From Candidatus Liptonbacteria bacterium (GTDB lineage: Bacteria > Patescibacteriota > Minisyncoccia > UBA6257 > 2-01-FULL-56-20), in the NCBI GenBank assembly GCA_023244895.1, contig JAHFLL010000001.1:83630-147629 (forward strand): a stretch of 64,000 nucleotides of DNA, read 5' to 3'. Shown here piece after piece: positions 6,473 through 56,953 of the stretch. Under the pieces are notes generated by a model, which saw only the letters and a program-made list of their open reading frames with translations, was not told where the DNA came from and ran no database searches. The stretch's first letter is position 1, and every line of letters starts with the position of its first letter. The position numbers were made by a program, and so were the translations under genes.

Positions 6473-7915
6473 ATGAAATACCAACCCACAATCGGATTAG
6501 AAATCCACTGCATCTTGCGAACACAGACCAAGATGTTTTGCGACTGCCCCAACGAGCCGGAGGAAAAGGAGCCCAACCGCAACACCTGCCCAGTTTGTCT
6601 GGGCCATCCCGGTACCTTGCCTACTATAAATCGCAAAGCGGTAGAGTCCGTTATCCGGGTGGGTCTGGCGCTTCAGGGTAAGATAAATCCGATTTGTAAG
6701 TTTGACCGTAAGAATTATTTTTATCCCGATTTGCCGAAGGGTTATCAAATTTCCCAATACGATCAGCCGCTAGTTCTGGGCGGCGAGCTGAATGGTATCC
6801 GCTTGCGCAGAATACATTTAGAAGAAGATGCGGCCAGGCTGCTGCATGAGATCTCCGGCCAAACCAAAAAGGGCGAGGCGAGTTTTGTGGATTTTAACCG
6901 CGCGAGCGTGCCCTTGATGGAGCTTGTGACTGAACCGGATTTAAGGAGCGCGGAAGAGACGGTAGAATTCGCGCGTGAGCTCCAAAGGATTTTGCGATAT
7001 TTGAAAGTATCGGACGCGGACATGGAGAAGGGGCATTTGCGCATTGAGGCAAATGTTAGTTTGAATATGGGTCCTAAGGTTGAGCTTAAAAATATTAACT
7101 CCTTTAAGGCGGTCGGTTCCGCGATTGCGTATGAACTGAAGAGGCAGGAGGAAGTTCTGGAGGGTGGAGGAACGGTCGCGCATGAGACACGCGGTTGGGA
7201 CGAAGTGAACCAGAAGAGCGTAAGTCAGCGTAGCAAGGAAGAAGCACAAGACTACCGTTATTTCCCGGAGCCGGATTTACCGCCATTTGAGACGGAGATT
7301 TTCAGCCCGGAAGAACTTCGTGGAGCCTTGCCGGAGTTGCCAGCCATGAAGCGTACCCGTTTCGCAAAAGAGTTCGGTTTGAGTCCCGACCAGGTCGCGC
7401 TCTTGGTGGACGACTTGGAACTATCGGAATATTTTGAAGAATGTTTAAGCGAGCTTGCCACGCGGGATGAATCAGCCTCGTCTACGGTTGAAAAGAGCAG
7501 TACCGTTTTACTCTTTAATTATTTAACTAGCGACCTGGCTGGCCTCTTGGCGGAAGGGGGCATAACTATCCGCAAATCCAAAGTCAAACCGGAACACCTG
7601 GCTCACTTAGTGGATTTAATCGTGGATGGAAAAATAATGAGCCGCCAAGCTAAAGATATTTTGAAGAAAGTTTTTGAAACCGGCACTGACCCGGAAGACG
7701 TTATGAAAGACGAGGGACTGGAGACCGTTTCGGATAACTCCGAGCTGGAAAAAGCGATTAAAGAAGTTATATATGAAAACCCGAAAGCGGTGGAAGATTT
7801 GCGCGCGGGCAAGGAGGCAAGCATGCAGTTCTTGATAGGAAAGTGTATGGGTAAGCTTCGCGGGCGGGGCAATCCGGCGACCATAAAAGAAGTTATAAGC
7901 AAAATTATTAAATAA
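6473..7915 (+). CDS. gatB: Asp/Glu-tRNA amidotransferase subunit B
   Basis: N-terminal GLEIHCIL...KMFCDCPN and a GatB/YqeY C-terminal domain. Confidence 0.9.
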   Translation: MKYQPTIGLEIHCILRTQTKMFCDCPNEPEEKEPNRNTCPVCLGHPGTLPTINRKAVESVIRVGLALQGKINPICKFDRKNYFYPDLPKGYQISQYDQPLVLGGELNGIRLRRIHLEEDAARLLHEISGQTKKGEASFVDFNRASVPLMELVTEPDLRSAEETVEFARELQRILRYLKVSDADMEKGHLRIEANVSLNMGPKVELKNINSFKAVGSAIAYELKRQEEVLEGGGTVAHETRGWDEVNQKSVSQRSKEEAQDYRYFPEPDLPPFETEIFSPEELRGALPELPAMKRTRFAKEFGLSPDQVALLVDDLELSEYFEECLSELATRDESASSTVEKSSTVLLFNYLTSDLAGLLAEGGITIRKSKVKPEHLAHLVDLIVDGKIMSRQAKDILKKVFETGTDPEDVMKDEGLETVSDNSELEKAIKEVIYENPKAVEDLRAGKEASMQFLIGKCMGKLRGRGNPATIKEVISKIIK

Positions 7916-9171: not shown

Positions 9172-9453
9172 ATGAGCAAGGAGCATGCACCCATGGGGAA
9201 CAACCCGATCGACGTCTTGCTGCGTGAGCACGGCCTCGAACCGTTGCCTGGCGCTGGCAGAGAGGGGCTGTACGTGGCTCCGTTTGACGAGCACGCGTGG
9301 GAAGTCGCCACGGCGACATTCAAGAACGCCATCGGTAATGCGTCGGATCAGGCGGCCATCGCCGAGCTGATGGAACAGGCGATTCGGCTGTACGTGGAGC
9401 TCGTCGGACAGAACACGCGAGCGCCCGCCGAGGAGCCAAGACGATGCGCGTAG
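9172..9453 (+). CDS. hypothetical high-GC protein (93 aa)
   Basis: first ORF of a high-GC island; followed by a strong hairpin terminator; start codon uncertain. Confidence 0.35.
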   Translation: MSKEHAPMGNNPIDVLLREHGLEPLPGAGREGLYVAPFDEHAWEVATATFKNAIGNASDQAAIAELMEQAIRLYVELVGQNTRAPAEEPRRCA

Positions 9454-11211: not shown

Positions 11212-12189
11212 CTAAAACAATTTTTTCACCTCTTGTAAAGCCCTATTTTTATCCTCTATCCAAACAATATTTTTATCTTTTTTCCACCAAGTCATTTGGC
11301 GTTTGGCGTAGCGCCAAATTTCGGTTTCCAATTTTTGCAACATTTCTTCTTTGGTTATCAGTCCGCGCAGATAGCGAGAGAGGTAGCGATATTCCAAGCC
11401 AAGCTCTTCCATTCTCCGCCAGCTTAATCCATCTTGGTGTAATTTTTTTACCTCTACCAACATGCCTTGGCGCATCCTTTTAATAAGTCGCGCGCGAATT
11501 CTCTCGCGTAGCTTCTCGGGTTTAATCCCAATGCCGAGTTTTAAAATTTTGTTTTGCGAAATTTTATCCTGAGCTTGTCGAAGGATTATGTCTGGGACGG
11601 GCGCGCCGGTTTTGAGGACTATCTCTAAGGCGCGGATGAGGCGACGCGGATTTTTTTGGTCAATATTTTTGGCGCGCGCCGGGTCCAGCTTCTGAAGTTT
11701 TTCGAAAAGTTCCGTGACAGATAATTTTTCCAACTTGGCGCGTAGTTTGGGATCGGGCGGAACGTTTGGCAGGGAGGTGTTATTTATAAGTGCATCAATA
11801 TAGAGTCCGGTACCTCCGCAGATAATCGGCAATTTATTTTTCGCCCAGATTGTTTTGAGCGCTTTGCGTCCGAGCTTCTGGTAGTCGGCTACAGAAAATT
11901 GTTTTTTAGGAGAGGCTACATCAAGCAGATAGTGGGGAATGCCTTTATAGGAGTAGGTAGTAGGTAGAGAGTAGTAGGCAGAGCGATCACGGGGAACTTT
12001 GCCGGTGCCGATATCAAGACCTCGATAAACCTGACGGGAGTCGGCAGAAATAATCTCTGCACCAGATATGCCGTACTTTTTTTGGAATGGTTTACTCTGA
12101 GCGAGCTTGGCGAGTCGAAGGGCCAAATCCGACTTGCCGGAGGCGGTCGGGCCTAAAATAACCAGTATTTTCCTGCTTAAATCACTCAT
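11212..12189 (-). CDS. miaA: tRNA dimethylallyltransferase (true start MSDLSRK at 12189; the longer track ORF is readthrough)
   Basis: P-loop ILGPTASGKS and IISADSRQVYRGLDIGTGK; low-GC backbone codon usage. Confidence 0.85.
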   Translation of the reverse strand: MSDLSRKILVILGPTASGKSDLALRLAKLAQSKPFQKKYGISGAEIISADSRQVYRGLDIGTGKVPRDRSAYYSLPTTYSYKGIPHYLLDVASPKKQFSVADYQKLGRKALKTIWAKNKLPIICGGTGLYIDALINNTSLPNVPPDPKLRAKLEKLSVTELFEKLQKLDPARAKNIDQKNPRRLIRALEIVLKTGAPVPDIILRQAQDKISQNKILKLGIGIKPEKLRERIRARLIKRMRQGMLVEVKKLHQDGLSWRRMEELGLEYRYLSRYLRGLITKEEMLQKLETEIWRYAKRQMTWWKKDKNIVWIEDKNRALQEVKKLF

Positions 12190-12218
12190 TTGACTAATTA
12201 TACAAAATGTGATAAAAT
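12190..12218 (+). promoter_or_regulatory. near-consensus sigma70 promoter TTGACT-17-TGaTAAAAT (extended -10)
   Basis: seen directly; the -35 abuts the miaA start codon on the opposite strand. Confidence 0.5.
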
Positions 12219-12288
12219 ACGCAATAGCGTCGGTGAGCTGGGGCATAGGGCTCCGGCAATAGTCCGAGGCGGTATATCGGAGTGCGTC

Positions 12289-12684
12289 ATGACTGATGCT
12301 ATCGTGTTTGTGATCACGGCGTTCATGGTCGGCGGAGAGGTCTTCATGGCGGCATGGGGGATTTTCTCCTGGACATGCGTTGTGGCGTGGCTCGCTGTGA
12401 TGCTCTATCTCACCTGGGACATCTGGGGCGCCCGGGTCGTAGAGCTCCAGCGGGATCTCGTGGCCGAGTTGGAGGAAGGCACGCCGCCCGACTTCAGCTC
12501 GCAACGAGTACTCCCGCCAAGTAGGTGGGACATCGTCCATTTCGCTGGCGTGGACGAGCAGGGGCAGGCGAAGTTCGACTACCCCCTCCTTTCCGCGTTT
12601 GCCGCCTGGCTCCGCCACCACATTGTGATTGGCGGTGGTCGCTGGCGGTACGGCGACACGTTCCCGCCGGACGGCAGCCGGTAG
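12289..12684 (+). CDS. small membrane protein (about 131 aa, 2 predicted TM segments), high GC
   Basis: GGAG 8 nt upstream of the ATG; hydrophobic N-terminus (VFVITAFMVGG...WLAVMLYLTW); GC3-rich. Confidence 0.4.
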   Translation: MTDAIVFVITAFMVGGEVFMAAWGIFSWTCVVAWLAVMLYLTWDIWGARVVELQRDLVAELEEGTPPDFSSQRVLPPSRWDIVHFAGVDEQGQAKFDYPLLSAFAAWLRHHIVIGGGRWRYGDTFPPDGSR

Positions 12685-12746
12685 CCCCACTGAGACGGGG
12701 CAATAGTGACTGGGGTCCAACGTGGACCCCTTTCGCATTTTTATAT

Positions 12747-19455: not shown

Positions 19456-20316
19456 ATGAATTGGAGTATCAGAAAAACTCGCTCTCGGGGAGGGGGAGAA
19501 TCCTTGTCGGAGCGCAAGAATCAATCTTTGTCTGACCTGCAGAAAAAGAAATCTCGGCGCAAAAAAATTTTCTGGGCGGTGCTTTGGTTTCTATTTATCT
19601 TCACGGGGGCATGTCTGCTCGTGCACGGACTCATTTGGTCGTCTTGGTTTCAGATTAAGGAAGTAAACTACTTTGGGGTGGATCGCTCAAACGAGGAAGA
19701 AATTATGAATTACTTGGTCTCCGACATAGCCGGAGGGAGTTGGTTGCAAAGGGTATTAAGTTTTAAACATATCTTGGCCTGGCCCGCTCATGAGTCTTGG
19801 CAGAGACCCGTTTTTTTGCCAATCATTTCTAAAATAGAACTGGAACGCAACTTCTGGGATAGATCTTTAAACGTGACAGTTTCGGAATGGCAACCGCTTG
19901 GGATCTGGTGCTCCACGGGAGGGGACAAAGAAAAGTGCGGCTGGTTTAATAGCGACGGCTTGGTGATACAGAAGGCTCCGCTCGCGGAAGGCAGTTTAAT
20001 TCCGGTAGTGCGAGATGTCTCCGGGAAGGAGCTCAAGCTGGGTAAAAAAATCTTAGAGTCGGAAGAAAAAACAGCAAACCTACTTTCCGTTTTTAAGGTT
20101 CTGTTTGCGGAGCATATTCCAATCACGGAAGTACGTCTGGAGCGTAGCGCTACGGACGAGATAAAAGTTTTTCAGACGAACGGTCCGGAAATGTATTTTA
20201 GCTTGCGTTTTCCGGCCAACTTAACGCAGGGTCCAATTCACGCTTTGCGCGCGGAAGGCTGGGAAAATTTAACTTATTTGGATTTCAGGATAGAGAACAG
20301 AGTCTACTACAAATAG
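19456..20316 (+). CDS. FtsQ/DivIB-like cell division protein (POTRA-like)
   Basis: basic cytoplasmic N-terminus, one TM helix, then IKEVNYFGVDRSNEEEI POTRA-like start; located downstream of alr. Confidence 0.55.
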   Translation: MNWSIRKTRSRGGGESLSERKNQSLSDLQKKKSRRKKIFWAVLWFLFIFTGACLLVHGLIWSSWFQIKEVNYFGVDRSNEEEIMNYLVSDIAGGSWLQRVLSFKHILAWPAHESWQRPVFLPIISKIELERNFWDRSLNVTVSEWQPLGIWCSTGGDKEKCGWFNSDGLVIQKAPLAEGSLIPVVRDVSGKELKLGKKILESEEKTANLLSVFKVLFAEHIPITEVRLERSATDEIKVFQTNGPEMYFSLRFPANLTQGPIHALRAEGWENLTYLDFRIENRVYYK

Positions 20317-20355
20317 AAGTTAGTAGTTAGAAGTTAGAATCTAGAAAATAAGAGT
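20314..20355 (+). repeat. heptad stop-codon array TAGAAGT TAGTAGT TAGAAGT TAGAATC TAGAAAA TAAGAGT
   Basis: six consecutive 7-nt units each beginning with TAG/TAA, starting at the ftsQ-like stop codon. Confidence 0.8.
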
Positions 20356-20448
20356 CGCCGGCGAAGTGATAGAGAATGAAGTCGGTGGAGCGAAAACCAC
20401 GCCCCGCCTATTCTAATAACTTCTACTTTCTAAATTCCAGCTTCTGCT

Positions 20449-22434
20449 CTAGGGTAGGTGGTAAATAAACAAAGAAGTTCCCGCGCGTAGATCCCATTTG
20501 GGAATTGCGCCCATTCCAGAATCGGTGAGGGGGCGCTCGCTGGTTAGCCAGCGGTACTCATCTTCCGGTTTGCGCTCAAAATTATTTATGGTTGGCTGGA
20601 TAGAGCCTTGGATAGAGTTTGCCGCGAGCACCAGCCAATGTATGCCCTCCGCGCGCGGGTCACCCTTACTACTCCACCAACTTACCGCCTTATCTCCGAA
20701 GTAATATGGGATGTGGGATCCACCGAAATAATCAATCGCGAATTTATCAATTTGCTCGCCATGCTTTATGCCGGAACCGATAAATTGCTTACAGGAGCTA
20801 GGGCAACCCACACCCAAATTTGCATCACATTTAGTTTGCGCGCAGTGATTATATTCCACAATGACGTTCTTTAGCCGCAATAAATCTTGTCCCCAATCGT
20901 AGTTGGAATCGGTTACGTAGCGATAGCCGTTACTCGTCCCTCCCGCGACTGGGTTAAAATAGGAAAGGTAGCTGGGATAGGCGTAGGCAGTTTCAAGGCC
21001 GAACCAGACTATTAATATGGCAAGCACGTAGCGGGAGGTTTTGGCCGCGGGATGCGTTAGATGATGGCGTTGCCAACTGCTTGCAATCAGTAGGTATATG
21101 AAGGGTAGGGTTGGGAAAAGATGGCGGAAGCCTATATTGAGCGGGCTTCTTATGCTGTATAGCCAATATAGGACCACGAATAACAGAAGCGCGTTCTCCG
21201 TAAAGTTATTATCAATCCAAGCGAATATCTTGCGCCAGAAACCGGTATTTTGAGGCACTTCCTTACGAATATTTTTCATTCGCCAAATACCGAAAACCAC
21301 AGCGCCCAAAATCAGAAGTAAGACAGGCAAGGACTCTTTCATGAGATATACCAGCGGGAAGTAAGCATGCGAGCCAGAAGCGGAAACATGCCCCATAAAA
21401 TAATTATTATTCCCACCAGCGGAACGTTGCATGACCATTAACACTCCCAAAGAGTATTCCGCTAGCGGTCGGGTAATGCGATTACCGGACATCCAGATGG
21501 TCATATCCGCCAAGCAGCGCGTGGGTTGGCAAATTTTACCCGGGGGAGTAGGACCGTTCGCGAAGGAGCGCAAGGTGGAGGTCGTGTCCGTCACCTGTTC
21601 CTCAATTGGATAATTATAGGTAAATAGTCCATAGACAGGGTAGACCAGAAGAACAAATCCCGTGACGAACAAGATGACCGTCCGACCAAAATAAGAATAG
21701 GAAATGGAGAAAAATCTTTTCCAGGAGAATCCTTCCCCCTGCGCGATAGACAGATTTAGCACCTTCAAGATTATAAGTATGACGAAGTAGGGTAGGAGCA
21801 GTACCGCGGAGAACTTAGAGAGTTGCGCTAGGCCAAAGGCCAGTCCCGCGAAGAACACATTCTTGCCGGATGGATTGGCGAGAAAGTGCAAAAAAAAGTA
21901 GGTCGCGACCGCTATCCCAAGCGCCGCGGCGATGTCGGTTGTGACATAGTGCCCATGGCTCAGAAAATTCGGTGATAGGCCTATCAGAAATGTCGGCAGA
22001 AGGGCCCATTTACCGCCTACCATTTCTTTGCTCCAACGATAGATAAACCAGATGAGTAGTAGTGTCAGAAATATCGGACCCAAGCGTGCCAGAAAAATCA
22101 GGAGCGGGGAATTGTTGCCGGATTCAAAAATAAACATTCTGCCTAGATCCCACTGAGCATTTATCTCACTCGTCCACTTGGAGCTCTCGGTGGGAAACCG
22201 TGCGTCCATGAATAAGAGAGGTATTCCCGAAAGCGCTTTTAAGAGGGGCGGATGCTCCGGGTTCAGACGATAGTCCAAGTAGCGCACGTAACTATAGCCG
22301 GAAGGAATATGGGCCAGCTCGTCCATAGTAAGAGAGTCGGCACGGGCCAAGACGAGCATCACGCTCGCGGAGATTAATAAAATAGCTAAGAGCCCCCAGG
22401 CACTCCACTTTTCCAATATTTTATTCATATACAC
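20449..22434 (-). CDS. GT-C family glycosyltransferase (PMT_2 / ArnT-like), polytopic membrane protein
   Basis: DELAHIPSGYSY...NPEHPPLLK matches the PMT/ArnT family signature; about 12 TM segments; Cys-rich C-terminal periplasmic domain. Confidence 0.7.
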   Translation of the reverse strand: MYMNKILEKWSAWGLLAILLISASVMLVLARADSLTMDELAHIPSGYSYVRYLDYRLNPEHPPLLKALSGIPLLFMDARFPTESSKWTSEINAQWDLGRMFIFESGNNSPLLIFLARLGPIFLTLLLIWFIYRWSKEMVGGKWALLPTFLIGLSPNFLSHGHYVTTDIAAALGIAVATYFFLHFLANPSGKNVFFAGLAFGLAQLSKFSAVLLLPYFVILIILKVLNLSIAQGEGFSWKRFFSISYSYFGRTVILFVTGFVLLVYPVYGLFTYNYPIEEQVTDTTSTLRSFANGPTPPGKICQPTRCLADMTIWMSGNRITRPLAEYSLGVLMVMQRSAGGNNNYFMGHVSASGSHAYFPLVYLMKESLPVLLLILGAVVFGIWRMKNIRKEVPQNTGFWRKIFAWIDNNFTENALLLFVVLYWLYSIRSPLNIGFRHLFPTLPFIYLLIASSWQRHHLTHPAAKTSRYVLAILIVWFGLETAYAYPSYLSYFNPVAGGTSNGYRYVTDSNYDWGQDLLRLKNVIVEYNHCAQTKCDANLGVGCPSSCKQFIGSGIKHGEQIDKFAIDYFGGSHIPYYFGDKAVSWWSSKGDPRAEGIHWLVLAANSIQGSIQPTINNFERKPEDEYRWLTSERPLTDSGMGAIPKWDLRAGTSLFIYHLP

Positions 22435-24591: not shown

Positions 24592-26388
24592 ATGAGCCAA
24601 AACAATATTCGCAACTTTGTAATTATTGCCCACGTAGATCATGGGAAGTCTACGCTGGCGGACCGGATGCTGGAAATCACCGGCACGGTGGAGGCGCGCA
24701 AAATGCGACCCCAATATTTGGACCAGCTGGAACTGGAGCGAGAGCGCGGTATTACCATTAAAATGGCTCCGGTTCGCATGAAGCATATTCTAGATGGCGA
24801 ACCATACACCTTGAATCTGATTGATACTCCTGGACACTCCGATTTTCAATACGAAGTTTCCCGCGCGCTTGCGGCAGTGGAAGGCGCAGTTTTATTGGTG
24901 GACGTGACTAAGGGCATCCAGGCGCAGACTCTTTCTAATTTGCGCCAGGCCCGAAAAAATAATTTGAAGATTATCGGAGCGGTTAACAAGGTTGATTTAC
25001 AGCCGGAGCGCGCGCCAAGGGTCTGCGCGGAACTGGCGGAGCTTCTAGATATTCCCAAAGAGGAGATACATATGATTTCCGGCAAGACCGGGGTGGGCGT
25101 GGAAGGTCTTTTGCGGGACGTGGTGCTGAGGGTTCCCGCGCCTCAATCTCCGCAGCCGGGAACTCCTGGGCGTAGCTTAACCTTTGATTCCTTCTATGAC
25201 GACCACAAGGGAATCTTGGCTTATGTGCGTATTATGGACGGCGAGATTAGGGCTGGCACGGAAGTGGAACTTATGGCGGGTGAGGCAAGGTGCAAAATAA
25301 AAGAAGTGGGTTGCTTCGCGCCGGAACTCAAAACCGTGCCGTCTCTTAGAGCGGGGGAGATCGGTTATCTGGCAACCGGGCTTAAAGAGCCATCTCTGGT
25401 TAAAATCGGAGACACGATTCTGGCTGACCCCGCCAAGCTTTCCAATAAAGAGAGTTTGCGTCTGCCGGGTTATCGGGAAGCCTCGCCGGTGGTGTTTATT
25501 TCTTTCTACCCGGACGGCGCGACGGAATTTGATGATTTGAAGCGCGGATTTGAGCGCCTGCATTTAACCGATTCCGCCTTGAACTTTGAGCCGGATGCGA
25601 ACGAGGCTCTGGGCCGGGGGCTTAAAGCTGGTTTTTTGGGCCAGCTTCATTTTGAAATTACGGCCAGTCGTCTGGAACGGGAATTCGGGTTGAAGTTTCT
25701 AACCAGTTTCCCGTCTATCGCTTATCGTGTGAAAGAAAAAGGGGAGTGGCGGGTGGTAAAAGACGCGCACCAGTTTCCGGATAACCCCGAAGAAGTTATG
25801 CAGCCAATGATTAAGGTGGAGATCGTGTCTCCCGCCATATATCTAAACGTAGTGGTCAGTTTACAGCAGGCTTACCAATTGGAGGTCGCGGAGATACATA
25901 CCGTGGGAGAAAGCGTTTTAATACACGGGCGAATGCCGCTTGCGGAACTGATTCGTGATTTTGATGACAAATTAAAATCTGTTTCCGCTGGCTACGCCTC
26001 TTTCAGTTACGAATTGGATACGGATGAACGGGCGGATGTGGAAAAGTTGGAAATATTAATCGCGGGCGAAGTCGCTTCCGCTTTAACGCGGGTGGTTTTT
26101 CGCAAAGACCTGGAGCGAGAGGGTCGTGCCACGGTTGAAAAGCTAAAGGACCTTTTGCCCCGCCAGCAATTCTCCCAGCCATTGCAGGCCAGTTCCGGAG
26201 GCAGAATTATAGCGCGCGAGACAATCCCGGCATTAAAGAAAAAGCTGGGAGATTTTGGTAAAAATGGCGGGGACCGCACTCGCAAGATGAAGCTTTGGAA
26301 AAAGCAGGAACGGGGCAAGGAACGCCTGCAAGAATCCGCCCACGTGGAGCTTTCCGTGGAGGTGTTTAGGGAGATATTAAAAAAATAG
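24592..26388 (+). CDS. lepA: elongation factor 4 (LepA)
   Basis: IIAHVDHGKSTLADR G-domain and LepA C-terminal domain. Confidence 0.92.
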   Translation: MSQNNIRNFVIIAHVDHGKSTLADRMLEITGTVEARKMRPQYLDQLELERERGITIKMAPVRMKHILDGEPYTLNLIDTPGHSDFQYEVSRALAAVEGAVLLVDVTKGIQAQTLSNLRQARKNNLKIIGAVNKVDLQPERAPRVCAELAELLDIPKEEIHMISGKTGVGVEGLLRDVVLRVPAPQSPQPGTPGRSLTFDSFYDDHKGILAYVRIMDGEIRAGTEVELMAGEARCKIKEVGCFAPELKTVPSLRAGEIGYLATGLKEPSLVKIGDTILADPAKLSNKESLRLPGYREASPVVFISFYPDGATEFDDLKRGFERLHLTDSALNFEPDANEALGRGLKAGFLGQLHFEITASRLEREFGLKFLTSFPSIAYRVKEKGEWRVVKDAHQFPDNPEEVMQPMIKVEIVSPAIYLNVVVSLQQAYQLEVAEIHTVGESVLIHGRMPLAELIRDFDDKLKSVSAGYASFSYELDTDERADVEKLEILIAGEVASALTRVVFRKDLEREGRATVEKLKDLLPRQQFSQPLQASSGGRIIARETIPALKKKLGDFGKNGGDRTRKMKLWKKQERGKERLQESAHVELSVEVFREILKK

Positions 26389-26420
26389 TAAGTAGATGGT
26401 GGCGAGTAAGTGATAGGGGA
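26386..26420 (+). repeat. heptad-phased stop array (TAG TAA..TAG.......TAA....TAG) after lepA
   Basis: stops at 26386, 26393, 26407 and 26414 in 7-nt phase. Confidence 0.5.
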
Positions 26421-27254: not shown

Positions 27255-27851
27255 ATGAAAGAAAAGATAAAACACATAGCCAAAGAGTATAAGCTCAAGT
27301 TAATCCTCGGCGCTTTGGTTCTGGCGGTGATTCTGGGGATAGGGCTAGTCTCCTTAAATCGCTATCCGATTGTAACCGTAAACGGCAGCCCCATCAGCGC
27401 CAACCGTTTCTGGAGAAACTACAAGGGCGCGGTCAAGTATTACGAAGGCGCCAAGAAATCCATGTCGCCGGACCAGCTGCCGACAAGCACGCCTAGCTCT
27501 ATGGAGATGCAGGCGGAAGTTATGACTCAGCTTATAGAGGCAGAGCTGATTTCCCAGGGGGCGGAAAAAGAGATAGGCAAGGATTTGGATTTTCTGGTTC
27601 AAAATAAAATTTCTCGCTATGAGAATAATCAGTCTCTGGCGCAGGCAGCGGGTTCCCTGTACGGAATGACCTACCAGGAGTTTCAAGATGAGGTAATGAT
27701 CCCCCAGGCGGAAAAAGAGATTTTGGTTGGCCGTTTTTATATGAGCGGAGATAATTTTGAGGAATGGTTTAGGGAACTCAAAAAATCAGCCTCCGTTAAT
27801 ATTTTTTCCAAAGGCTTTCGCTGGGACGGGGAGAGGGTCCGCCCCAATTAG
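27255..27851 (+). CDS. SurA N-terminal domain-like periplasmic chaperone
   Basis: signal anchor followed by YPIVTVNGSPISANRFW. Confidence 0.45.
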   Translation: MKEKIKHIAKEYKLKLILGALVLAVILGIGLVSLNRYPIVTVNGSPISANRFWRNYKGAVKYYEGAKKSMSPDQLPTSTPSSMEMQAEVMTQLIEAELISQGAEKEIGKDLDFLVQNKISRYENNQSLAQAAGSLYGMTYQEFQDEVMIPQAEKEILVGRFYMSGDNFEEWFRELKKSASVNIFSKGFRWDGERVRPN

Positions 27852-27883
27852 AAGTCAGAATATAGAAGTTGGAATTTAGAATG
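27849..27883 (+). repeat. heptad stop array TAGAAGT CAGAATA TAGAAGT TGGAATT TAGAATG
   Basis: TAG every 14 nt in 7-nt units; abuts the tRNA-Gly 3' end. Confidence 0.7.
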
Positions 27884-27957
27884 TGGAGCGGGTGATGGGA
27901 ATCGGACCCACGCTTTAACCTTGGGAAGGTCACGTACTGCCACTATACTACACCCGC
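27884..27957 (-). tRNA. tRNA-Gly (anticodon CCC)
   Basis: reverse complement GCGGGTGTAGTATAGTGGCAGTACGTGACCTTCCCAAGGTTAAAGCGTGGGTCCGATTCCCATCACCCGCTCCA folds as a cloverleaf with encoded CCA; T-loop reads TCCGATT (C at position 55, unusual); coordinates +/-2. Confidence 0.75.
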
Positions 27958-29640: not shown

Positions 29641-29676
29641 TTTGTAGTGTAATTTATCCCTGTTAACTTCTAACTT
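29641..29676 (-). repeat. heptad stop array (minus strand: TAGATAG AAGTTAG AAGTTAA) after the permease stop
   Basis: same AAGTTAG unit as the arrays at 543 and 20314. Confidence 0.6.
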
Positions 29677-30450
29677 CTATCTATGAGGTTTAAGCAGGCT
29701 CAGAATAAATAAGCCGGTTGCTACTACCACTACTGTAGCGCCCAATTCCAAGGAGTATGTGCTTGCTATCAAATATCCCAGAACCATAGCTACTATTCCG
29801 AGCAGCGAAGACAGAACCAAGAATCTATTAAGAGAGTGGGTGAGTTGGCGAGCGGTAGCAGCCGGAATGATTATGAGCGATCCCACTAGGAGCGCGCCCA
29901 AGAACCTAAGACTTACTAATATGGCGAGCCCGAAGAGAAGCAGGAACCAAAGATTTACCCGGTCTACATTGACTTTAGCGGATGCGGCCAAGTCCGGAGA
30001 AAAAAGCGTGAGGATAAGCTTGTGCCGCAGCTGCCAGAGCGCGAAGATGATAAAGAGGCTGACCAAGCTGCCGAACCAGAATTCCGCCGACGATAATTTT
30101 CCGAATCCGCCGAAGAGAGCATCGATTAGTTCTTCGGTGGAGTTTATGAGGAGCGCGCCCAGGGCTACGGAGCTCGCGAATATCACGCCGATAACCGCTT
30201 CCGTGGTCAGGCTAGTTTTCTTCTGCAGCTGCCAGATTATCAGTATTCCCAAAAGAAGTGTCAGTCCCGCTCCAAACAGGGGATTTATTTTCCAAAGCAG
30301 GGCCAGTCCCAATCCGGGAATGGCGATATGAGACATAACGTCACCCGCTAGAATGGTTCGCTTCATAAGCGCGAACGCGCCGACTAGTCCCGCGGCCGCG
30401 GCAGCGATAAGCGCTAAGATAAGGGGTAAGGCTTGATCGTATAGCATCAT
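29677..30450 (-). CDS. metal (Zn/Mn) ABC transporter permease, ABC-3 family
   Basis: 8-TM ABC-3 (ZnuB/TroD-like) profile. Confidence 0.8.
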   Translation of the reverse strand: MMLYDQALPLILALIAAAAAGLVGAFALMKRTILAGDVMSHIAIPGLGLALLWKINPLFGAGLTLLLGILIIWQLQKKTSLTTEAVIGVIFASSVALGALLINSTEELIDALFGGFGKLSSAEFWFGSLVSLFIIFALWQLRHKLILTLFSPDLAASAKVNVDRVNLWFLLLFGLAILVSLRFLGALLVGSLIIIPAATARQLTHSLNRFLVLSSLLGIVAMVLGYLIASTYSLELGATVVVVATGLFILSLLKPHR

Positions 30451-31639: not shown

Positions 31640-33352
31640 ATGACGACCCTCTCTCCAGTTGAAGAAATAAAGCAAAAGCTGGACATTGTAGAATTTTTGC
31701 GCGGTTACCTGACGGTCCAGCCGGCTGGTAAGAATTTCAAGGCTAATTGTCCATTTCATAAAGAGAAGACTCCCTCCTTTATGATTTCTCCGGAACGCCA
31801 GTCCTGGCATTGTTTCGGCTGTGGCATCGGCGGGGATGTTTTCAGTTTCACGATGCGCTATGAGAACGTGGAGTTCGGAGAAGCGTTGCGCATTCTGGCG
31901 GACAAAGCCGGAATTGAACTGCGCAGGCTTAACCCCGCGGAATATAAATATACCGGACTCTTATATGAGCTAAATCAATTAGCCAAAGAATTTTTCCGCA
32001 AAGAGTTGGAGAATTCCCAAGAGGCGAAAAAATATCTCGCGGAGCGGGGCTTAAAACAAGAGACTATAAATGAGTTTGAAATAGGCTGGGCACCCAACAA
32101 GCCGGAAGCGTTGACCTTCCACCTCTTGAATATGAATTATCGGCCGGAAGATATGGTTCAGGCCGGTCTCTCTTTCAAGACCGACCGGGGAGCGCAGATT
32201 GATCGCTTTCGGGGCAGGATAATGTTTCCAATACATAATCATCTGGGCAAGGTGGTGGGATTTACGGGTAGGATATTGCCCCAGTTAGATAATGGCCAGA
32301 CCGGGAAGTATGTGAACAGTCCCGAAACTCCAATTTTCAATAAGTCCAAATTACTATACGGGTTCTGGAAGAGTAAGGACGCGATTCGAGACGCGGGCGA
32401 GGCGTTTCTAGTAGAAGGACAGATGGACTTTCTGATGAGCTATCAAACCGGCGTCAGAAATGTTTTCGCCAGTTCTGGCACGGCGCTCACTCCGGACCAT
32501 CTACGGGTTCTAAAAAGGATGTGTGAAAAGTTGGTGGTAAGTTTTGATAGCGACGCGGCCGGGCTCGCGGCAGGAGAACGGGCGATTGAGCTCGCGGAGG
32601 CAAACGATTTCCAGGTTAAAGTTCTTTCGCTGGGGAAATATAAGGATCCGGCGGAGGCCGCCCAGGCAGAACCAGAGTTTTTGAAGGAAACGGTCAAGAA
32701 TGCCCGCCCCGCCCCGGAGTTTTATTTTTTGCGCTACGGTTTAACCGGTCCGGTAAATCTGGGAGACAGAGAGGTCTTGGGAAGAGTGCGGGGCGCGCTT
32801 CAAAAATTAGCTCACATTGCGAGCCCGGTAGAGCGCTCTTACTGGCTAAAGGAGTTGTCCAAGAAAATCGGAGCAGACGAGGAGGCGTTGCGCGCGGAGA
32901 TGCAAGGAATCTCTGGTAAGCCCAGTCAAGAAGGTGTCGGCAAGGAGGCAATCAAAGAGAACCCGCCTGCCGAGCCGATTTTGCCGATTACGCGCTGGGA
33001 GCTATTGAGCCAAAGACTGCTATCTGCTATGCTGGCATTAAACAAGTTTGAATTCTTGGGCGAATCCGCCAAGTGCCTCGCGTCCGGCTACGAGCCGGTT
33101 TTAGACTTATTGCGGGCAGGGCAAAGACGCTCGGAAGATTTAAGGCTGGATGGAGTTTTGAATTTGATAGTATTGCGTTCAGAGGAGCTCTCGGAAAGCG
33201 AAATTTCCGAATTAAAAGAGCACCTGGTTCGCGAATATTCTAAGGAACGTCGCAAGGAACTGACTCAGGTTATCCGCCAGGCGGAAGCGAGAGGCGACGA
33301 AGCGGCGATGCAAAAAGCGATGGAGGAGGTAAGGGGGTTGCCGACATATTAA
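31640..33352 (+). CDS. dnaG: DNA primase
   Basis: zinc ribbon CPFHKEKTPSF...CFGCG and a TOPRIM domain. Confidence 0.9.
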   Translation: MTTLSPVEEIKQKLDIVEFLRGYLTVQPAGKNFKANCPFHKEKTPSFMISPERQSWHCFGCGIGGDVFSFTMRYENVEFGEALRILADKAGIELRRLNPAEYKYTGLLYELNQLAKEFFRKELENSQEAKKYLAERGLKQETINEFEIGWAPNKPEALTFHLLNMNYRPEDMVQAGLSFKTDRGAQIDRFRGRIMFPIHNHLGKVVGFTGRILPQLDNGQTGKYVNSPETPIFNKSKLLYGFWKSKDAIRDAGEAFLVEGQMDFLMSYQTGVRNVFASSGTALTPDHLRVLKRMCEKLVVSFDSDAAGLAAGERAIELAEANDFQVKVLSLGKYKDPAEAAQAEPEFLKETVKNARPAPEFYFLRYGLTGPVNLGDREVLGRVRGALQKLAHIASPVERSYWLKELSKKIGADEEALRAEMQGISGKPSQEGVGKEAIKENPPAEPILPITRWELLSQRLLSAMLALNKFEFLGESAKCLASGYEPVLDLLRAGQRRSEDLRLDGVLNLIVLRSEELSESEISELKEHLVREYSKERRKELTQVIRQAEARGDEAAMQKAMEEVRGLPTY

Positions 33353-33390
33353 TAATTAGTAAGTAGATAGTGGTGGGCAGTAGGAGACGG
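33350..33390 (+). repeat. heptad stop array TAATAAT TAGTAAG TAGATAG ...
   Basis: stops at 33350, 33357 and 33364 in 7-nt phase, plus extra out-of-phase stops. Confidence 0.55.
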
Positions 33391-35455: not shown

Positions 35456-35494
35456 GCGCCCGGGTGAAGTTCCCCGGGCGCAGCTGTTTATTTG
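35456..35494 (+). terminator. intrinsic terminator GCGCCCGGG tgaagttcc CCGGGCGC then AGCTGTTTATTTG
   Basis: perfect 8/9-bp stem followed by a T-rich tail. Confidence 0.55.
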
Positions 35495-37399
35495 AATATC
35501 TGGCGGTTTTTCCATAAGATAGAGAGCATGATGACGGTAAACGAGATTAGGCAGAAATATCTGGAATTTTTTAAGAGTAAGGGACACAGGGTAATCCCTT
35601 CCGCGTCCTTGGTGCCGGAGAATGACCCCACCACTCTTTTTACGAGCTCCGGAATGCAACCGCTAATCCCTTATCTTTTGGGCCAAGAGTATCCTTTAGG
35701 CAAACGTCTTGCGAACTCCCAAAAGAGTTTTAGGGCGGAAGACATAGAGGAAGTTGGAGATAATCGCCACACCACCTTCTTTGAAATGCTGGGCAACTGG
35801 TCCCTGGGTGATTATTGGAAGGAAGAGCAGCTGCCCTGGTTTTTTGAATTTGTAACAGATGTCCTAAAAATTGACCCGCAAAGATTATATGTATCAGTTT
35901 GGAGTGGTGCGGAGGGAGTTCCTAAAGATGAGGACTCTATCGCCATTTGGCAGAAGCTTTTTGGCGAGAAGGGAATAAAAGATGCCAAGTATGCCGAGAT
36001 GGTAACCGAAGAAGCTGCCTCCGAGCGGGGCATGCAACCGGGCGAACGGATTTTTGGATATCAGAAAAAAAACTGGTGGAGCCGTTCTGGCGCCCCGGAC
36101 AAGATGCCCGTGGGTGAACCGGGCGGACCGGATTCGGAGATGTTCTACGATTTTGATCCGAGTGGAGCGATGCATAAGCCGGAGTTCGGTAAGTATTGCC
36201 ATCCCAACTGTGATTGCGGGCGGTTTATTGAGATTGGTAACTCCGTATTTATGGAGTATCGCAAAAAAGAAGATGGTAGTTTTGAAAAATTGCCCCAGCG
36301 CAACGTGGATTTCGGGGGAGGCTTAGAAAGAATGGCGATGGTTCTAACCGGAACGCCAGATATTTTTGGAATAGATGTGTTTGCTAATATTAGCCGCTCC
36401 CTAGTAAAGTCTGGCGTTATATCAGGGAGTGTAGATATCCGTAGGCTGAGGGTGGTGCTAGATCATGCGCGCGCGGCTATATTTTTAGCCAACGACGGAG
36501 TGGTGCAGTCTAATAAGGGTCAAGGGTACGTGTTGCGAAGACTCGTGCGTCGAGCCGTAATGTTCGCGAAGCTACTTGATCTTAATGCTCCCTGGTTCGG
36601 CGTTGTTTTGGATTCTCTAACTGAAAGTTATCCCGAGCTTAAACAAAATAAAGTCTTTATAGAAACCACTCTAAGAGAAGAAATAGATAAATTTAGCGAT
36701 CTCATTGGAAGCGGAGCAGAAGAAATCCAAAAGACTTTTTCTAAGGGAATAACCGCAATAGATGCATTCAATCTTCATCAGACATATGGTTTCCCTTGGG
36801 AGCTTACCAAGGAGCTAGCCAAGGAGAGAGGGGTGTATATAGACGAGGATGAGGTTCAAGAGGAGTTCAAAAAGCATCAGGAGCTTTCCCGAACCGCTTC
36901 CGCTGGGGTTTTTAAAGGAGGACTCGCGGATAGTTCCGAAAAAGTGGTCAGACTACACACGGCAACGCACTTAATGAACGCAGCTTTGCGCAAGGTGCTG
37001 GGTGAGAGCGTCTGGCAGAAGGGTTCCAATATTACAGAAGAGCGTACCCGTTTTGATTTTACTCATGGCGAGAAAATGACTGAGGAGCAAAAGAAAGAAG
37101 TGGAAAAGATTGTAAATGACGTCATTGCGCGTGACTACGAAGTCAAAAAAGAAATTATGCCATTAGAAGAGGCGCGTAAGTTAAACGCCATCGGAGTGTT
37201 CGGCGAGAAGTATCCGGATACGGTGAGCGTTTATACGGTTTGGGACCCGAAAACCCAAGAGGTTTTTAGCCGGGAATTTTGCGGCGGTCCGCATGTGACC
37301 CATACGGGAGAAATTGGTAAGTTTAGAATTATTAAAGAAGAGGCGGTGGCGGCTGGAATTCGCAGAATTAAGGCGGGGGTGGGGGATGTAAATAACTAA
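35492..37399 (+). CDS. alaS: alanyl-tRNA synthetase, short form (start probably MMTVNEI at 35528)
   Basis: class II catalytic core (FTSSGMQP) and editing-domain HxxxH (HTATHLMNAALR); lacks the C-terminal C-Ala domain. Confidence 0.85.
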   Translation: MNIWRFFHKIESMMTVNEIRQKYLEFFKSKGHRVIPSASLVPENDPTTLFTSSGMQPLIPYLLGQEYPLGKRLANSQKSFRAEDIEEVGDNRHTTFFEMLGNWSLGDYWKEEQLPWFFEFVTDVLKIDPQRLYVSVWSGAEGVPKDEDSIAIWQKLFGEKGIKDAKYAEMVTEEAASERGMQPGERIFGYQKKNWWSRSGAPDKMPVGEPGGPDSEMFYDFDPSGAMHKPEFGKYCHPNCDCGRFIEIGNSVFMEYRKKEDGSFEKLPQRNVDFGGGLERMAMVLTGTPDIFGIDVFANISRSLVKSGVISGSVDIRRLRVVLDHARAAIFLANDGVVQSNKGQGYVLRRLVRRAVMFAKLLDLNAPWFGVVLDSLTESYPELKQNKVFIETTLREEIDKFSDLIGSGAEEIQKTFSKGITAIDAFNLHQTYGFPWELTKELAKERGVYIDEDEVQEEFKKHQELSRTASAGVFKGGLADSSEKVVRLHTATHLMNAALRKVLGESVWQKGSNITEERTRFDFTHGEKMTEEQKKEVEKIVNDVIARDYEVKKEIMPLEEARKLNAIGVFGEKYPDTVSVYTVWDPKTQEVFSREFCGGPHVTHTGEIGKFRIIKEEAVAAGIRRIKAGVGDVNN

Positions 37400-37432
37400 T
37401 AATATATAACCAATAATAAATAACGGGGAGAT
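37397..37432 (+). repeat. heptad TAA array (TAA TAATATA TAACCAA TAATAAA TAACGGG)
   Basis: TAA at 37400, 37407, 37414 and 37421, exactly 7 nt apart. Confidence 0.7.
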
Positions 37433-40286: not shown

Positions 40287-40335
40287 GAGTGGTTAGAAAC
40301 TAAAATCTAGAAGATAGAAGTTGGAATATGGAAAG
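40284..40335 (+). repeat. heptad stop array TAGAAAC TAAAATC TAGAAGA TAGAAGT TGGAATA TGGAAAG
   Basis: stops at 40284, 40294, 40301, 40308 and 40315 cover all three frames. Confidence 0.75.
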
Positions 40336-40501
40336 CAGGGGAAAAAATTTGAAAATTGGTGTAAAATGTATTTATAACTGCGCAAAACAATGAATCCCGT
40401 CTGTTGCCTAAGGCTCGAGCGGTACGCGGATCAATTATGATCATGATATTAAAGTCGATTTCAAATAAATTAAGCGAGGTTTATTCCTAGCAACCTACGG
40501 G

Positions 40502-42190: not shown

Positions 42191-42340
42191 GGCCAAGGAG
42201 CGGAAGCCCAGAGATTGACAAATGGGCCATGTTTTGCTTATAATTTTCCCGCTAGTTGATATGAGAGGTTTACCTCCTGGCTTTTTATTTTATGTTAAAT
42301 CTACGGTCATATCGATGGGCGGAAAGCTTTGTCTTAAGAT

Positions 42341-42562
42341 ATGAACGGTAATAACAAAGCTAGTTTAGCGCGCGCAGAGGGGATTGTAGAGGAAGCGTTG
42401 CCCGGGCTCATGTTTCGGGTCAAGCTTCAAGACGGACAGACCCTTTTGGCGCATCTTTCCGGTAAAATGCGATTGCATCGCATTCGGGTTTTGCCCGGAG
42501 ATAGGGTGTCCTTAGAAATGAGTCCGGACGGTGGGCGAGGTAGGATTAACAGAAGGCTATAG
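42341..42562 (+). CDS. infA: translation initiation factor IF-1
   Basis: S1-like fold ([25 protein letters not shown]...[14 protein letters not shown]). Confidence 0.85.
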
Positions 42563-42650
42563 TCGTTAGTAGTTAGAACTTAGCTGTTAAATACGTAGAA
42601 GCAAAGAATCTCCTAAGTCCTAAAGACTAATCACTAAATACTAATCAACA
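42560..42650 (+). repeat. entire infA-rpmJ spacer built of 7-nt units carrying TAG (x4) then TAA (x6)
   Basis: TAG at 42560, 42567, 42574 and 42581; TAA at 42588, 42614, 42621, 42628, 42635 and 42642. Confidence 0.8.
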
Positions 42651-42764
42651 ATGAAGGTAAGAAGCTCAATCAAAACAAGATGTCAGGCCTGTAAGGTGGT
42701 TAAGCGTCGCGGCCGCCTGTATGTTATTTGCAAGACCCCCAAGCACAAGCAGAGACAGGGATAG
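42651..42764 (+). CDS. rpmJ: 50S ribosomal protein L36
   Basis: [37 protein letters not shown], 37 aa; missing from the ORF track. Confidence 0.85.
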
Positions 42765-44272: not shown

Positions 44273-45037
44273 ATGGAATACGCACTACTTAGTTCTAGTT
44301 TGAATATTAAGAAGGTCTCAGAAGAGGCGCAGAAAGGTGTTTTTGAAATAGAAGGTCTATATGCTGGCTACGGTCTTACCGTCGGCAACGCTTTGCGACG
44401 CGCGCTTTTATCGTCCCTTCCGGGCGCGGCCGTAACTTACGTAAAAATAAAGAATGCCGCCCACGAGTTTACTACTCTGCCGGGTGTTAAAGAGGATGTG
44501 GTGGAATTAACTTTAAATATGAAGAAGCTGCGTTTTCGCTGCTTCTCGGATGAGCCGCAAGTTCTTTTAGTAAAGGTTAAGGGCGCGCGCGAGGTTAAGG
44601 GTTCCGATATCGGACTTAACTCCAACGTGGAGCTGATAAATCCAGAGCAGGTTATCGCGACCCTAACCGAAAAGAACGCTGATTTTGAAGCGGAATTCAC
44701 AGTGGAAAGAGGATTGGGTTATTCCGCGGTAGAGTCCCGTAAAGCGGAAAAGCTCGCGATTGGCATGATCGGCGTAGACGCATTTTTCTCACCGGTTACA
44801 AGAGTTAATTTTACGGTAGACAATATGCGCGTGGGAGATCGCACTGATTACAACCGTTTGCGGTTGGAAATAGAAACAGATGGCACAGTGAGCCCGTCGA
44901 GCGCACTTCACAAGACCGCGAGCATACTAAAGGATCACTTTGAGAAGATCTTCGGAGTGGAAGTGCAGGATTTTGAAGCAGCCCACAAGTCGGAGGAAGA
45001 GAAGCCCAAAAAGAAGGCAAAGAAGTCCAGTAAGTAG
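44273..45037 (+). CDS. rpoA: RNA polymerase alpha subunit, N-terminal domain only (no alpha-CTD)
   Basis: GNALRRALLSSLPGAAVTYVKI; 254 aa against about 330 for a full-length alpha. Confidence 0.85.
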   Translation: MEYALLSSSLNIKKVSEEAQKGVFEIEGLYAGYGLTVGNALRRALLSSLPGAAVTYVKIKNAAHEFTTLPGVKEDVVELTLNMKKLRFRCFSDEPQVLLVKVKGAREVKGSDIGLNSNVELINPEQVIATLTEKNADFEAEFTVERGLGYSAVESRKAEKLAIGMIGVDAFFSPVTRVNFTVDNMRVGDRTDYNRLRLEIETDGTVSPSSALHKTASILKDHFEKIFGVEVQDFEAAHKSEEEKPKKKAKKSSK

Positions 45038-45069
45038 TGAGTAGATAGCAGCAAGTATTAATCAACAAC
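45035..45069 (+). repeat. weak heptad stop array (TAGTGAG TAGATAG ...)
   Basis: TAG at 45035 and 45042, plus extra stops; ends in the TAATCAACAACATG start context. Confidence 0.35.
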
Positions 45070-53127: not shown

Positions 53128-54201
53128 CTAGATATTAAGCATCCCGTCCGCCTTCATTTTATATTTTTTCTTGCGCAGAATATTCAGATAACCCGCGGCC
53201 GCAATCATGACCGCGTTGTCGGTATTGTATTTGTGCTCCGCCACGAAAAATTCCAGACCATTTTCGTTTGCCCTTTGGGATAATCTCTCCCGCAACATCT
53301 TATTGGCCGCCACTCCGCCGGAAAGAAGAATGGACTGGGCGTTAAAATCGCTGGCGGCGCGCATCGTCTTTTTAGTAAGCACGTCTATTGCGGCACCGGA
53401 GAACGAACCGGCCACCTCTTGTTTAGAATACTTCTTATGATCCCGAACGTAATAAAGCACGGAAGTTTTAAGCCCGGAGAAGCTGAAATCATAATCCTTT
53501 GTGCCTATCATCGGGCGCGGGAAGTTTATTTTATCCTTCCAGCTCTTAGGGAGTTTTTCCACCAGCTTTTGTATCTCCGGTCCGCCGGGATAGGGGAGTT
53601 TTAATACGCGTGCCACCTTGTCAAATGCCTCGCCCACCGCATCATCCCTGGTTTCGCCTAAGCGTTTCCAGGATTTAAGATTTTTTAGGAGGAGCAGGAC
53701 GGTATGTCCGCCGCTCACGATCAGCGCAACCGCGGGGAATATTTTTGATATCTGATTTTTGACATTTGAATTTACAGTTTTATTCGGGAGAAGAAAACTG
53801 TAGAGATGTCCCTCCAGATGATTTGCACCGATGACGGGCTTTTTATATTTCTTACCTAATTCTTCCGCGAAGGTGATGCCCGCCCAGAGTGCCGGTTCTA
53901 GGCCCGGGCCGACTGTCACGGCTATAGCATCTATAGAATCTAGAAGCTGGAAGTTAGAAGATAGTAGTTTCTTAAGTAGGATGGGAAGGTTTTTGATATG
54001 TTCTCTTTTGGCTAAATTTGGGACCACGCCTCCAAAAGGACGGTGAATAGCTATCTGAGACGAGACCACTTCGCGTAATACCTCAAACTTAGGCCCGGTT
54101 TTAAGGTTGCCAGAAGCTTGTACTAGCGCCAGAGCCGTTTCGTCGCAGGATGTTTCTATTCCTAAGATAAGCATAACGCTATGAAATTTAACCGAATCCA
54201 A
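53128..54201 (-). CDS. tsaD: tRNA N6-adenosine threonylcarbamoyltransferase TsaD
   Basis: ILGIETSCDETALAL and a Kae1/TsaD HxxxH metal site. Confidence 0.9.
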   Translation of the reverse strand: MDSVKFHSVMLILGIETSCDETALALVQASGNLKTGPKFEVLREVVSSQIAIHRPFGGVVPNLAKREHIKNLPILLKKLLSSNFQLLDSIDAIAVTVGPGLEPALWAGITFAEELGKKYKKPVIGANHLEGHLYSFLLPNKTVNSNVKNQISKIFPAVALIVSGGHTVLLLLKNLKSWKRLGETRDDAVGEAFDKVARVLKLPYPGGPEIQKLVEKLPKSWKDKINFPRPMIGTKDYDFSFSGLKTSVLYYVRDHKKYSKQEVAGSFSGAAIDVLTKKTMRAASDFNAQSILLSGGVAANKMLRERLSQRANENGLEFFVAEHKYNTDNAVMIAAAGYLNILRKKKYKMKADGMLNI

Positions 54202-55439: not shown

Positions 55440-55510
55440 TGTAATTTCAAATGTTAAATTTCAAATGTCAAAAAACTTTTAATTGTCGTTTGTCATTTGG
55501 ATTTTGAACA

Positions 55511-56923
<1,413 letters not shown>

Positions 56924-56953
56924 TTAATTTTGATTTTTGAATTTTGCGTTATT

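Follow-up and report, generated by a model that had tools for sequence, protein, structure and literature searches.

Here, we describe a set of 7-nt repeats in a 64-kb stretch of DNA from Candidatus Liptonbacteria (the whole stretch that was analyzed, hereafter the window), with emphasis on the element between infA (42341-42562) and rpmJ (42651-42764). The window is gene-dense, has a G+C content of 49%, and derives from an uncultured, Paceibacteria/Liptonbacteria-like member of the Patescibacteria: metagenome-assembled genomes (MAGs) related by rpoA are labeled Paceibacteria, Saccharibacteria, Harrisonbacteria, or "Patescibacteria group", and one FtsQ-like relative and one S13 relative carry the label Candidatus Liptonbacteria. 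Its start codons mostly follow A-rich leaders without a Shine-Dalgarno (SD) sequence. A first reading of this DNA (the original prediction) held that many stop codons, genome-wide, are followed by 7-nt units that each begin with TAG or TAA and together close all three reading frames. Period-7 arrays are present at each locus it listed; the phenomenon is real and statistically solid, the earlier observation is partly confirmed, and the interpretation put on it finds support in part.

The infA-rpmJ spacer measures 88 nt. All ten TAG and TAA coordinates reported for it are correct, but they do not form one continuous array: a TAG block (42560-42588) is followed, after about 25 aperiodic nucleotides, by a TAA block (42614-42642) whose phase is shifted by 5. 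The two blocks are inverted with respect to each other (CTAA being the reverse complement of TTAG), and the TAA block, once reverse-complemented, reads GATTAGT ATTTAGT GATTAGT CTTTAGG ACTTAGG, heptads of the same TTAG family. The 5' arm (42560-42586, plus strand) consists of four TTAG-phased heptads, TAGTCGT TAGTAGT TAGAACT TAGCTG, the first of which is the infA stop codon. An aperiodic loop follows (42587-42611, plus), and the 3' arm (42612-42648, plus) adds five CTAA-phased heptads that run into the A-rich rpmJ leader, with the ATG at 42651. As RNA, the spacer is predicted to form an imperfect hairpin of 20 pairs, bulged at 7-nt intervals, that extends from the infA UAG (42560) to 42636; the 14 nt closest to the rpmJ AUG stay unpaired, and the predicted energy of the hairpin is -16.5 kcal/mol (z -2.2).

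We compared the element with relatives in three tiers: very close (L028 and L036, two contigs of the sister MAG GCA_964529845.1, and the metagenome contigs L016, L017, and L029), next (L030-L035, S13 87-94% identical), and distant (rpoA 55-76% identity). The hairpin scores z -3.4 in L017. The 5' arm is identical there, and L036 has two changes, one turning an A-U pair into G-U and one within a bulge. When the window, L036, and L017 are aligned, 1 of 65 arm and leader columns is variable; between the arms (columns 25-53), 15 of 29 vary and indels also occur. Pairing is kept in all three sequences, with 19 of the 20 pairs invariant and the A-U to G-U replacement as the lone in-pair change. Flanking genes diverge by about 9% at the nucleotide level, yet 66 arm bases are unchanged in L017; because the chance of this is 0.91^66 (~0.002), the arms must be under constraint, at least over this short distance. 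The nearest outgroups have spacers of 1-4 nt, which marks the window element as a recent insertion of ~85 nt; in L030-L035 the spacer is TAAAAAAATG, TAAATATG, or TAATATG. The hairpin probably serves as an intercistronic structural element that would keep the stop and the next start close, or stabilize or mark the mRNA, and such a role would be why the insertion has been tolerated. Separately, the DNA upstream of infA contains a perfect match to a sigma-70-type promoter at 42215-42244 (plus; TTGACA, 18 nt, TATAAT), and boxes resembling it occupy the equivalent position in L003, L006, and L007.

Phasing was quantified in 6.6 kb of intergenic DNA against 300 dinucleotide-preserving shuffles. Pairs of TAA/TAG at lag 7 number 61, compared with 22.4 in the shuffled sequence (z 7.3); lags 14 and 21 follow at z 4.8 and z 2.3, and all remaining lags reach at most z 2.2. 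When simple base identity is scored instead, lag 7 reaches z 5.5, and period 7 is prominent relative to periods 8-11. Among the 64 triplets, TAG shows the strongest lag-7 phasing (30 pairs where 4.5 are expected, z 10.7), with AGA and GAA next. Coding DNA has period 3 and no period 7. The sister MAG (L028 and L036) independently repeats the lag-7 TAA/TAG excess at z 9.1, so the period-7 enrichment of stop spacing that had been predicted holds against shuffled sequence in both genomes. Tandem Repeats Finder likewise recovers period-7/14 arrays at 543, 20314, 27849, 29664, 37391, 42620, and 53941 and in two atp-operon spacers. The claims of "genome-wide" and "many" are overstated. Across 84 kb, made up of the window and 10 kb of flanking DNA at each end, arrays lie downstream of 11 of 95 genes (~12%, about one in eight), and these genes have no functional theme.

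We rejected an assembly artifact as the source of the arrays, since the same sequence is found in ENA and Logan assemblies of other runs; orthologous arrays in the NCBI sister MAG and in JGI contigs likewise speak against it. The other assemblies of the same organism are identical, and no strain polymorphism of the arrays is visible among them. An Rfam search of the whole window at gathering thresholds returned two tRNAs and nothing else.

The units are related across loci and purine-rich, as originally described, and fall into two families, with family A at eight loci and family B at three in the 64 kb. In 39 family A units placed in register, the first five positions are T (37 of 39), A (32), G (36), A (31), and A (36), followed by K and N; the motif is TAGAA plus two free positions (unit TAGAAKN). 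Positions 4-5 are conserved about as well as the T-A-G of positions 1-3. A unit that starts with TAG or TAA is thus an adequate description of 30 of the 39 (nine are stop-free), but the conserved core is TAGAA rather than TAG alone. Family B is a GTAG-built subfamily with an AGTAGAT core and lies downstream of lepA, dnaG, and rpoA. Base composition across the arrays is 42% A, 29% G, 25% T, and 4% C. Solo arrays are predicted to be unstructured as RNA (minimum free energy [MFE] 0 to -2 kcal/mol), and those at operon ends form purine-rich tails free of C. A 14-mer said to be shared between loci, GTTAGAATCTAGAA, occurs once, at 20333; the exact string common to several loci is the 12-mer TAGAATCTAGAA (557, 20335, and 53934).

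Ten of the 11 intergenic arrays are in sense orientation with respect to the upstream gene, including two that lie 3' of minus-strand genes in a plus-dominated region. The sole exception is the infB-rbfA spacer, where antisense units reach the rbfA ATG. That arrays abut stop codons is borne out, and in sense orientation: they start at the stop codon or at most 8 nt downstream (mostly within 4 nt), and the first unit is in most cases the gene's own stop codon. Reverse-complement copies are found 5' of the start codons of rpmJ and rbfA, and antisense runs lie inside tsaD and a miaA-like open reading frame (ORF).

Hairpin terminators had been described as absent where arrays sit. This is so for most solo arrays, which lie mostly at transcription-unit ends without a strong hairpin terminator, but not for the array at 543, which is followed by a strong hairpin at 593-622. 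The idea that arrays replace intrinsic terminators is accordingly only partly true, one of them having its own. The arrays are also unlike intrinsic terminators, with their G+C-rich stem and U run, in being 4% C and mostly unstructured; hairpin terminators do occur elsewhere in the window (e.g., 593-622, 4915-4942, and 35456-35481). A promoter reading was rejected as well: matches to the boxes TAGAAT (-10) and TTGACAT (-35) are at chance level in three 20-kb scans, and only two 9/12 matches touch arrays.

Between very close relatives, the arrays change quickly. L028 lacks exactly one TAGAAGT unit of the array 3' of the FtsQ-like gene, and the array of the PMT_2 gene is equal in length to its L028 counterpart with toggles of TGGAATT to TAGAATT and TAGAAGT to TGGAAAT. 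Downstream of the SurA-like gene, family A in the window is matched by family B in L028. The L028 copies 3' of the SurA-like gene and lepA are identical over 27 nt, while the orthologous lepA 3' copies differ between the window and L028; copies within a genome are more alike than orthologues between genomes. The window, L036, and L016 differ in both the sequence and the number of units of the array of the 379-aa gene, which is absent from L030-L033, and L029 keeps TTAG every 7 nt with the other three bases changed. Taken as a whole, the comparisons demonstrate slippage by steps of 7 nt, rapid turnover, and homogenization or copying between loci.

The TAG-phased signal is found in the window, L016/L017, L028/L036, and L029, and there is none in L030-L035. 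These near relatives have similarly A-rich, apparently SD-less leaders in the aligned operon, with 1-10-nt spacers and no arrays. The TAG family is likewise absent from distant relatives, although period 7 itself returns in some of them, such as L007 (z 7.4), L008 (z 6.5), and L013 (z 3.2), and is lacking in others. Their units, such as ATCAAAA, TTGAAAA, and ACTTAAA, are largely stop-free. As a rule, the arrays come in inverted pairs that span the whole stop-to-start spacer and are predicted to fold into hairpins; L025 has an AGAATTN hairpin. To the question of whether relatives conserve the periodicity rather than the sequence, the answer is mixed: period 7 recurs, but sporadically, and the TAG content does not. 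In L007, the infA-rpmJ, S11-S4, and L17-L13 spacers are taken up completely, between stop and start codons, by three near-identical A/U-rich hairpins with ATCAAAA-type arms (6291-6379, 7419-7508, and 9325-9411). A different, genome-specific palindromic family (AATAACGCGAAT ... ATTCGCATTATT ... TTCGCGAATACT) occupies the rpmJ-S13 and rpoA-L17 spacers of L030-L032 and the rpoA-L17, S13-S11, and L17-L13 spacers of L003. Because such other palindromic repeats also sit in ribosomal-protein spacers, colonization of short spacers seems to be general in this clade. In the distant relative L027, four in-frame AAAATTS heptads (4707-4748) lie within an intact lepA ORF.

We propose that the arrays are probably a lineage-specific family of dispersed heptanucleotide simple-sequence repeats with two subfamilies, A (TAGAAKN) and B (GTAG). 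Head-to-tail 7-nt copies occur above chance; one unit is found at many, mainly intergenic, loci; copy number changes by whole units between close relatives; and the distribution is sporadic and lineage-specific. The arrays would thus constitute a new family within an already-known repeat class, with phased stops as an arithmetic by-product. Since a 7-nt unit containing TAG places stops in all three frames, a sense array may abut an ORF but would not extend into it, and whichever TAG or TAA of the array comes first in frame would become the gene's stop codon. The phased stops would account for where arrays can sit, not for why arrays exist.

Heptamer repeats have precedents in other bacteria; cyanobacterial STRR heptamers, for example, were reportedly described by Mazel et al. 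in 1990. The statement that no family of phased all-frame stop repeats had been described does not hold, as intergenic TAACTGA heptamers with stops in all frames have already been reported (MacGregor 2015, PMC4679880). These direct repeats occur in marine Beggiatoaceae, some Cyanobacteria, and Bacteroidetes; their forward orientation carries stops in every frame, and their overlap with ORF ends is limited to 18 nt, while reverse copies can occur inside ORFs, and the repeats are found in ribosomal-protein operons and SD-poor contexts (PMC4679880). The arrays described here resemble them in unit length, short arrays (2-6 copies there), a mostly intergenic and orientation-specific placement, all-frame stops, reverse copies in ORFs, presence in ribosomal-protein operons and SD-poor contexts, and sporadic distribution. 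They differ in the unit, which is TAGAAKN or GTAG-type rather than TAACTGA; in their position directly after stops, as opposed to directly before starts (only the inverted arms at rpmJ and rbfA abut starts here); in the prominence of inverted hairpin pairs, of which one indirect repeat was reported there; and in phylum. More broadly, heptanucleotides are the commonest long simple repeat in prokaryotes and have been ascribed to polymerase slippage (Mrazek et al. 2007, as related in PMC4679880). The present arrays share with the long simple repeats and the STRR type the heptanucleotide unit, sporadic and intergenic occurrence, recurrence of one unit at many loci, and slippage; they are unlike them in being short (3-7 units), imperfect, tied to stops and the sense strand, and homogenized as subfamilies within the genome. 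A literature search on intergenic heptamer repeats in Patescibacteria found no paper.

Several observations weigh against this interpretation. A purely neutral repeat predicts neither the primacy of TAG nor the strong sense bias, and the inverted arrays, together with one 27-nt sequence at two loci, go beyond simple slippage, so that a copy-and-paste or gene-conversion step is needed. At the infA-rpmJ hairpin, no compensatory base-pair change is seen among the window, L036, and L017, so its structure fits the data but is unproven, and because the 14 nt before the rpmJ AUG are unpaired, coupling through unmasking of the start region is not obvious. Furthermore, the DNA considered is 84 kb of a ~0.84-Mb genome. 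The sense bias, TAG primacy, C-poor composition, and constrained hairpin arms leave room for a role at the RNA level, and a hairpin or protein-binding site is possible.

If the arrays are heptanucleotide repeats of this kind, streamlined Patescibacteria genomes with 1-10-nt spacers are still open to colonization by fast-evolving 7-nt repeats. Such families define gene ends, the first unit often being the stop codon, which matters for gene calling and for the reading of 3' ends. Sister genomes that have arrays, lack them, or have different ones at the same loci offer a natural experiment on an RNA-level effect, a question that has stood since heptamer repeats were described in cyanobacteria and Beggiatoaceae.

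Alternatively, an oligomeric RNA-binding protein could use the arrays as a binding platform, recognizing UAG or UAGAA at 7-nt spacing and marking the 3' ends of ORFs, whether for hairpin-less termination, 3'-end protection, or translational control. HutP recognizes UAG-N4-UAG-N4-UAG, and TRAP recognizes 11 GAG/UAG triplets with 2-3-nt spacers. The arrays likewise present UAG at a fixed short spacing on RNA predicted to be single-stranded, the HutP spacing being exactly 7 nt, and contain at least three UAG triplets spaced by 4 nt. The phasing of TAG above all other triplets, a TAGAA core whose two free positions resemble a site plus spacer, the sense bias, and a C-poor, unstructured strand that would be accessible all suit such a protein, as do the frequent placement of solo arrays at transcription-unit ends without a strong terminator and the retention of TTAG in L029 while the other three bases changed. 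Within-genome homogenization is also expected if the arrays co-evolve with one binding protein. However, HutP and TRAP sites lie in the 5' leaders of single operons, where they control an antiterminator, whereas the arrays are 3' of many unrelated stops, outside any HutP-type leader/terminator context. The precomputed gene calls and the 20 Pfam-scanned window ORFs, a non-exhaustive survey of ~10% of the genome, contain no HutP-family match and no gene resembling TRAP, CsrA, or Hfq. TAG also interchanges with TGG, very close relatives have lost or exchanged arrays with no apparent effect, just 12% of genes have an array, and one array precedes an ordinary terminator. We therefore regard a protein platform as unlikely.

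A second alternative derives the arrays from small palindromic mobile elements, of the REP/BIME or miniature inverted-repeat transposable element type, that would be moved by a transposase encoded elsewhere (e.g., a RAYT-type Y1 enzyme) and insert at or next to stops; the arrays would be the arms of such elements or what is left of them as solo copies. REP/BIME elements, whose units are imperfect palindromes of about 20-40 nt, are dispersed and genome-specific, lie in 3' and intercistronic spacers, form mRNA hairpins, and evolve in concert, and GTAG is a tetranucleotide conserved in REP elements. Dispersed, genome-specific repeats, spacer hairpins, concerted evolution, and discrete insertions into short spacers are common to both systems: at infA-rpmJ, ~85 nt of palindromic DNA have been inserted as a discrete unit where the spacer was 1-4 nt, L007 bears three near-identical hairpins in three ribosomal-protein spacers, L003 and L030 bear another palindromic family at two or three spacers, and two L028 loci agree over 27 nt. 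The arms here, by contrast, are tandem 7-nt repeats. The infA-rpmJ and atpD-atpC spacers and the L007 copies are palindromic; most window arrays are solo direct repeats with an MFE near 0, and these vary by whole 7-nt units, as simple repeats do. No target-site duplications were seen, and no transposase or RAYT gene is present among the precomputed gene calls and scanned ORFs (84 kb of ~840 kb). On balance, a mobile origin of this kind seems rather improbable.

A more specific proposal combines features of the arrays into a Patescibacteria-specific 3'-end signal. Here, (UAGAAnn)n or (GUAGnnn)n tails would be read by a multimeric RNA-binding protein, or by the ribosome and release factor 1, as 7-nt-spaced UAG on a C-free strand, and would end transcription or protect the 3' end without a hairpin; the inverted form would bridge stop and start for SD-less re-initiation. 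We view this as speculative and doubtful.

Besides a protein or RNA recognition element, the original prediction offered as a candidate role phased back-up stops against read-through or frameshifting in SD-less translation. Several features agree with selection for such stops: most arrays start on the stop codon or no more than 4 nt from it; of the 11 array genes, 73% have every frame closed by 42 nt past the stop, compared with 46% in shuffles; the best-phased triplet is TAG; and TAG and TAA are the stops that this genome uses (TAA 31, TAG 29, and TGA 5 in the window). However, the stop count of the arrays equals the dinucleotide expectation (4.82 triplets per 42 nt vs 4.51 +/- 0.32), and only the phasing is special. 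The 88% of genes without an array have no surplus of downstream stops: in these 84 genes, the three frames are closed within 42 nt in 13% (shuffles 13 +/- 3%), and downstream stop triplets average 2.15 against 2.20 in shuffled sequence. Moreover, the AA that follows TAG is equally conserved, TAG and TGG interchange between close relatives, five to seven units are present where three suffice, inverted copies sit 5' of starts and antisense copies inside ORFs, arrays are missing from relatives whose aligned operon has similarly A-rich leaders, and the period-7 arrays of distant relatives use largely stop-free units. The arrays are not a dedicated or new translational safety system, and with no stop excess in array-free genes, TAG-to-TGG toggling, and inverted and antisense copies all against it, selection as fail-safe stops is very improbable.

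The family A arrays occupy the following positions. The array at 543-578 (plus; TAGAAGT TAGAAGG TAGAATC TAGAAGA TGGTAGA) begins 1 nt past the stop of a cyt-b5-like gene, and six units at 20314-20355 (plus) begin with the stop codon of the FtsQ-like gene (19456-20316). Complementary to the latter is the array at 20409-20451 (minus), in sense orientation 3' of the convergent PMT_2 glycosyltransferase gene (20449-22434, minus). Together, the two sense arrays of these convergent genes flank a small G+C-rich hairpin, and the entire spacer (20314-20451) can form one long predicted stem (-40.3 kcal/mol, z -2.0), which might work for either gene's direction. The array at 27849-27883 (plus) occupies the entire spacer between the SurA-like stop and the 3' end of tRNA-Gly (27884-27957, minus). 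At 29661-29679 (minus), TAGAAGT TAGAAGT TAAC begins with the stop of an ABC-3 permease gene (29677-30450, minus). Finally, six or seven units at 40294-40335 (plus) start 8 nt past the stop of the 379-aa gene and lie 5' of a conserved promoter-like stretch. Between that stretch and the start of a 562-aa gene, ~115 nt (~40388-40501) are without counterpart in L016 and L036 and have an ATG at either boundary.

Family B comprises TAGTAAGTAGATGGTGGCGAGTAAGTGATAGGGG at 26386-26420 (plus) 3' of lepA, TAATAATTAGTAAGTAGATAGTGGTGGGCAGTAGGAG at 33350-33390 (plus) 3' of dnaG, and AGTAAGTAGTGAGTAGATAGCAGCAAGTA at 45029-45058 (plus), which covers the last two codons and the stop of rpoA, is followed by the rplQ leader, and is predicted to be unstructured as RNA. 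A weak A/T-rich period-7/14 array (AATAACN) lies 3' of alaS at 37397-37424 (plus).

Two runs are antisense to coding sequence. Five family A units at 53934-53966 (plus) lie inside tsaD (53128-54174, minus), where they are translated as KKLLSSNFQLLDS, part of a variable helix. TsaD is just 2 residues longer there than the Thermotoga maritima protein (6nak_B), and the run is therefore not a simple insertion. Similarly, the GTAG-type heptads GTAGGTA GTAGGTA GAGAGTA GTAGGCA (11947-11981, plus) are antisense in the miaA-like ORF (11212-12738, minus), which has an IPP-transferase domain.

With regard to stop codons in general, TGA is scarce in the window despite 49% G+C, and some of the ORFs that end in TGA are doubtful; given this rarity, one may ask whether the organism has release factor 2 or reads TGA poorly. 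Lastly, two atp-operon spacers on the minus strand carry heptads of other sequence. The atpD-atpC spacer (55440-55510) has inverted arms of the CAAATGA / TCATTTG type and forms a weak predicted hairpin (-11.6 kcal/mol, z -1.4), and the atpG-atpD spacer (56906-56953) has a stop-poor (CAAAAWT)n array that is predicted to be unstructured as RNA (MFE 0).

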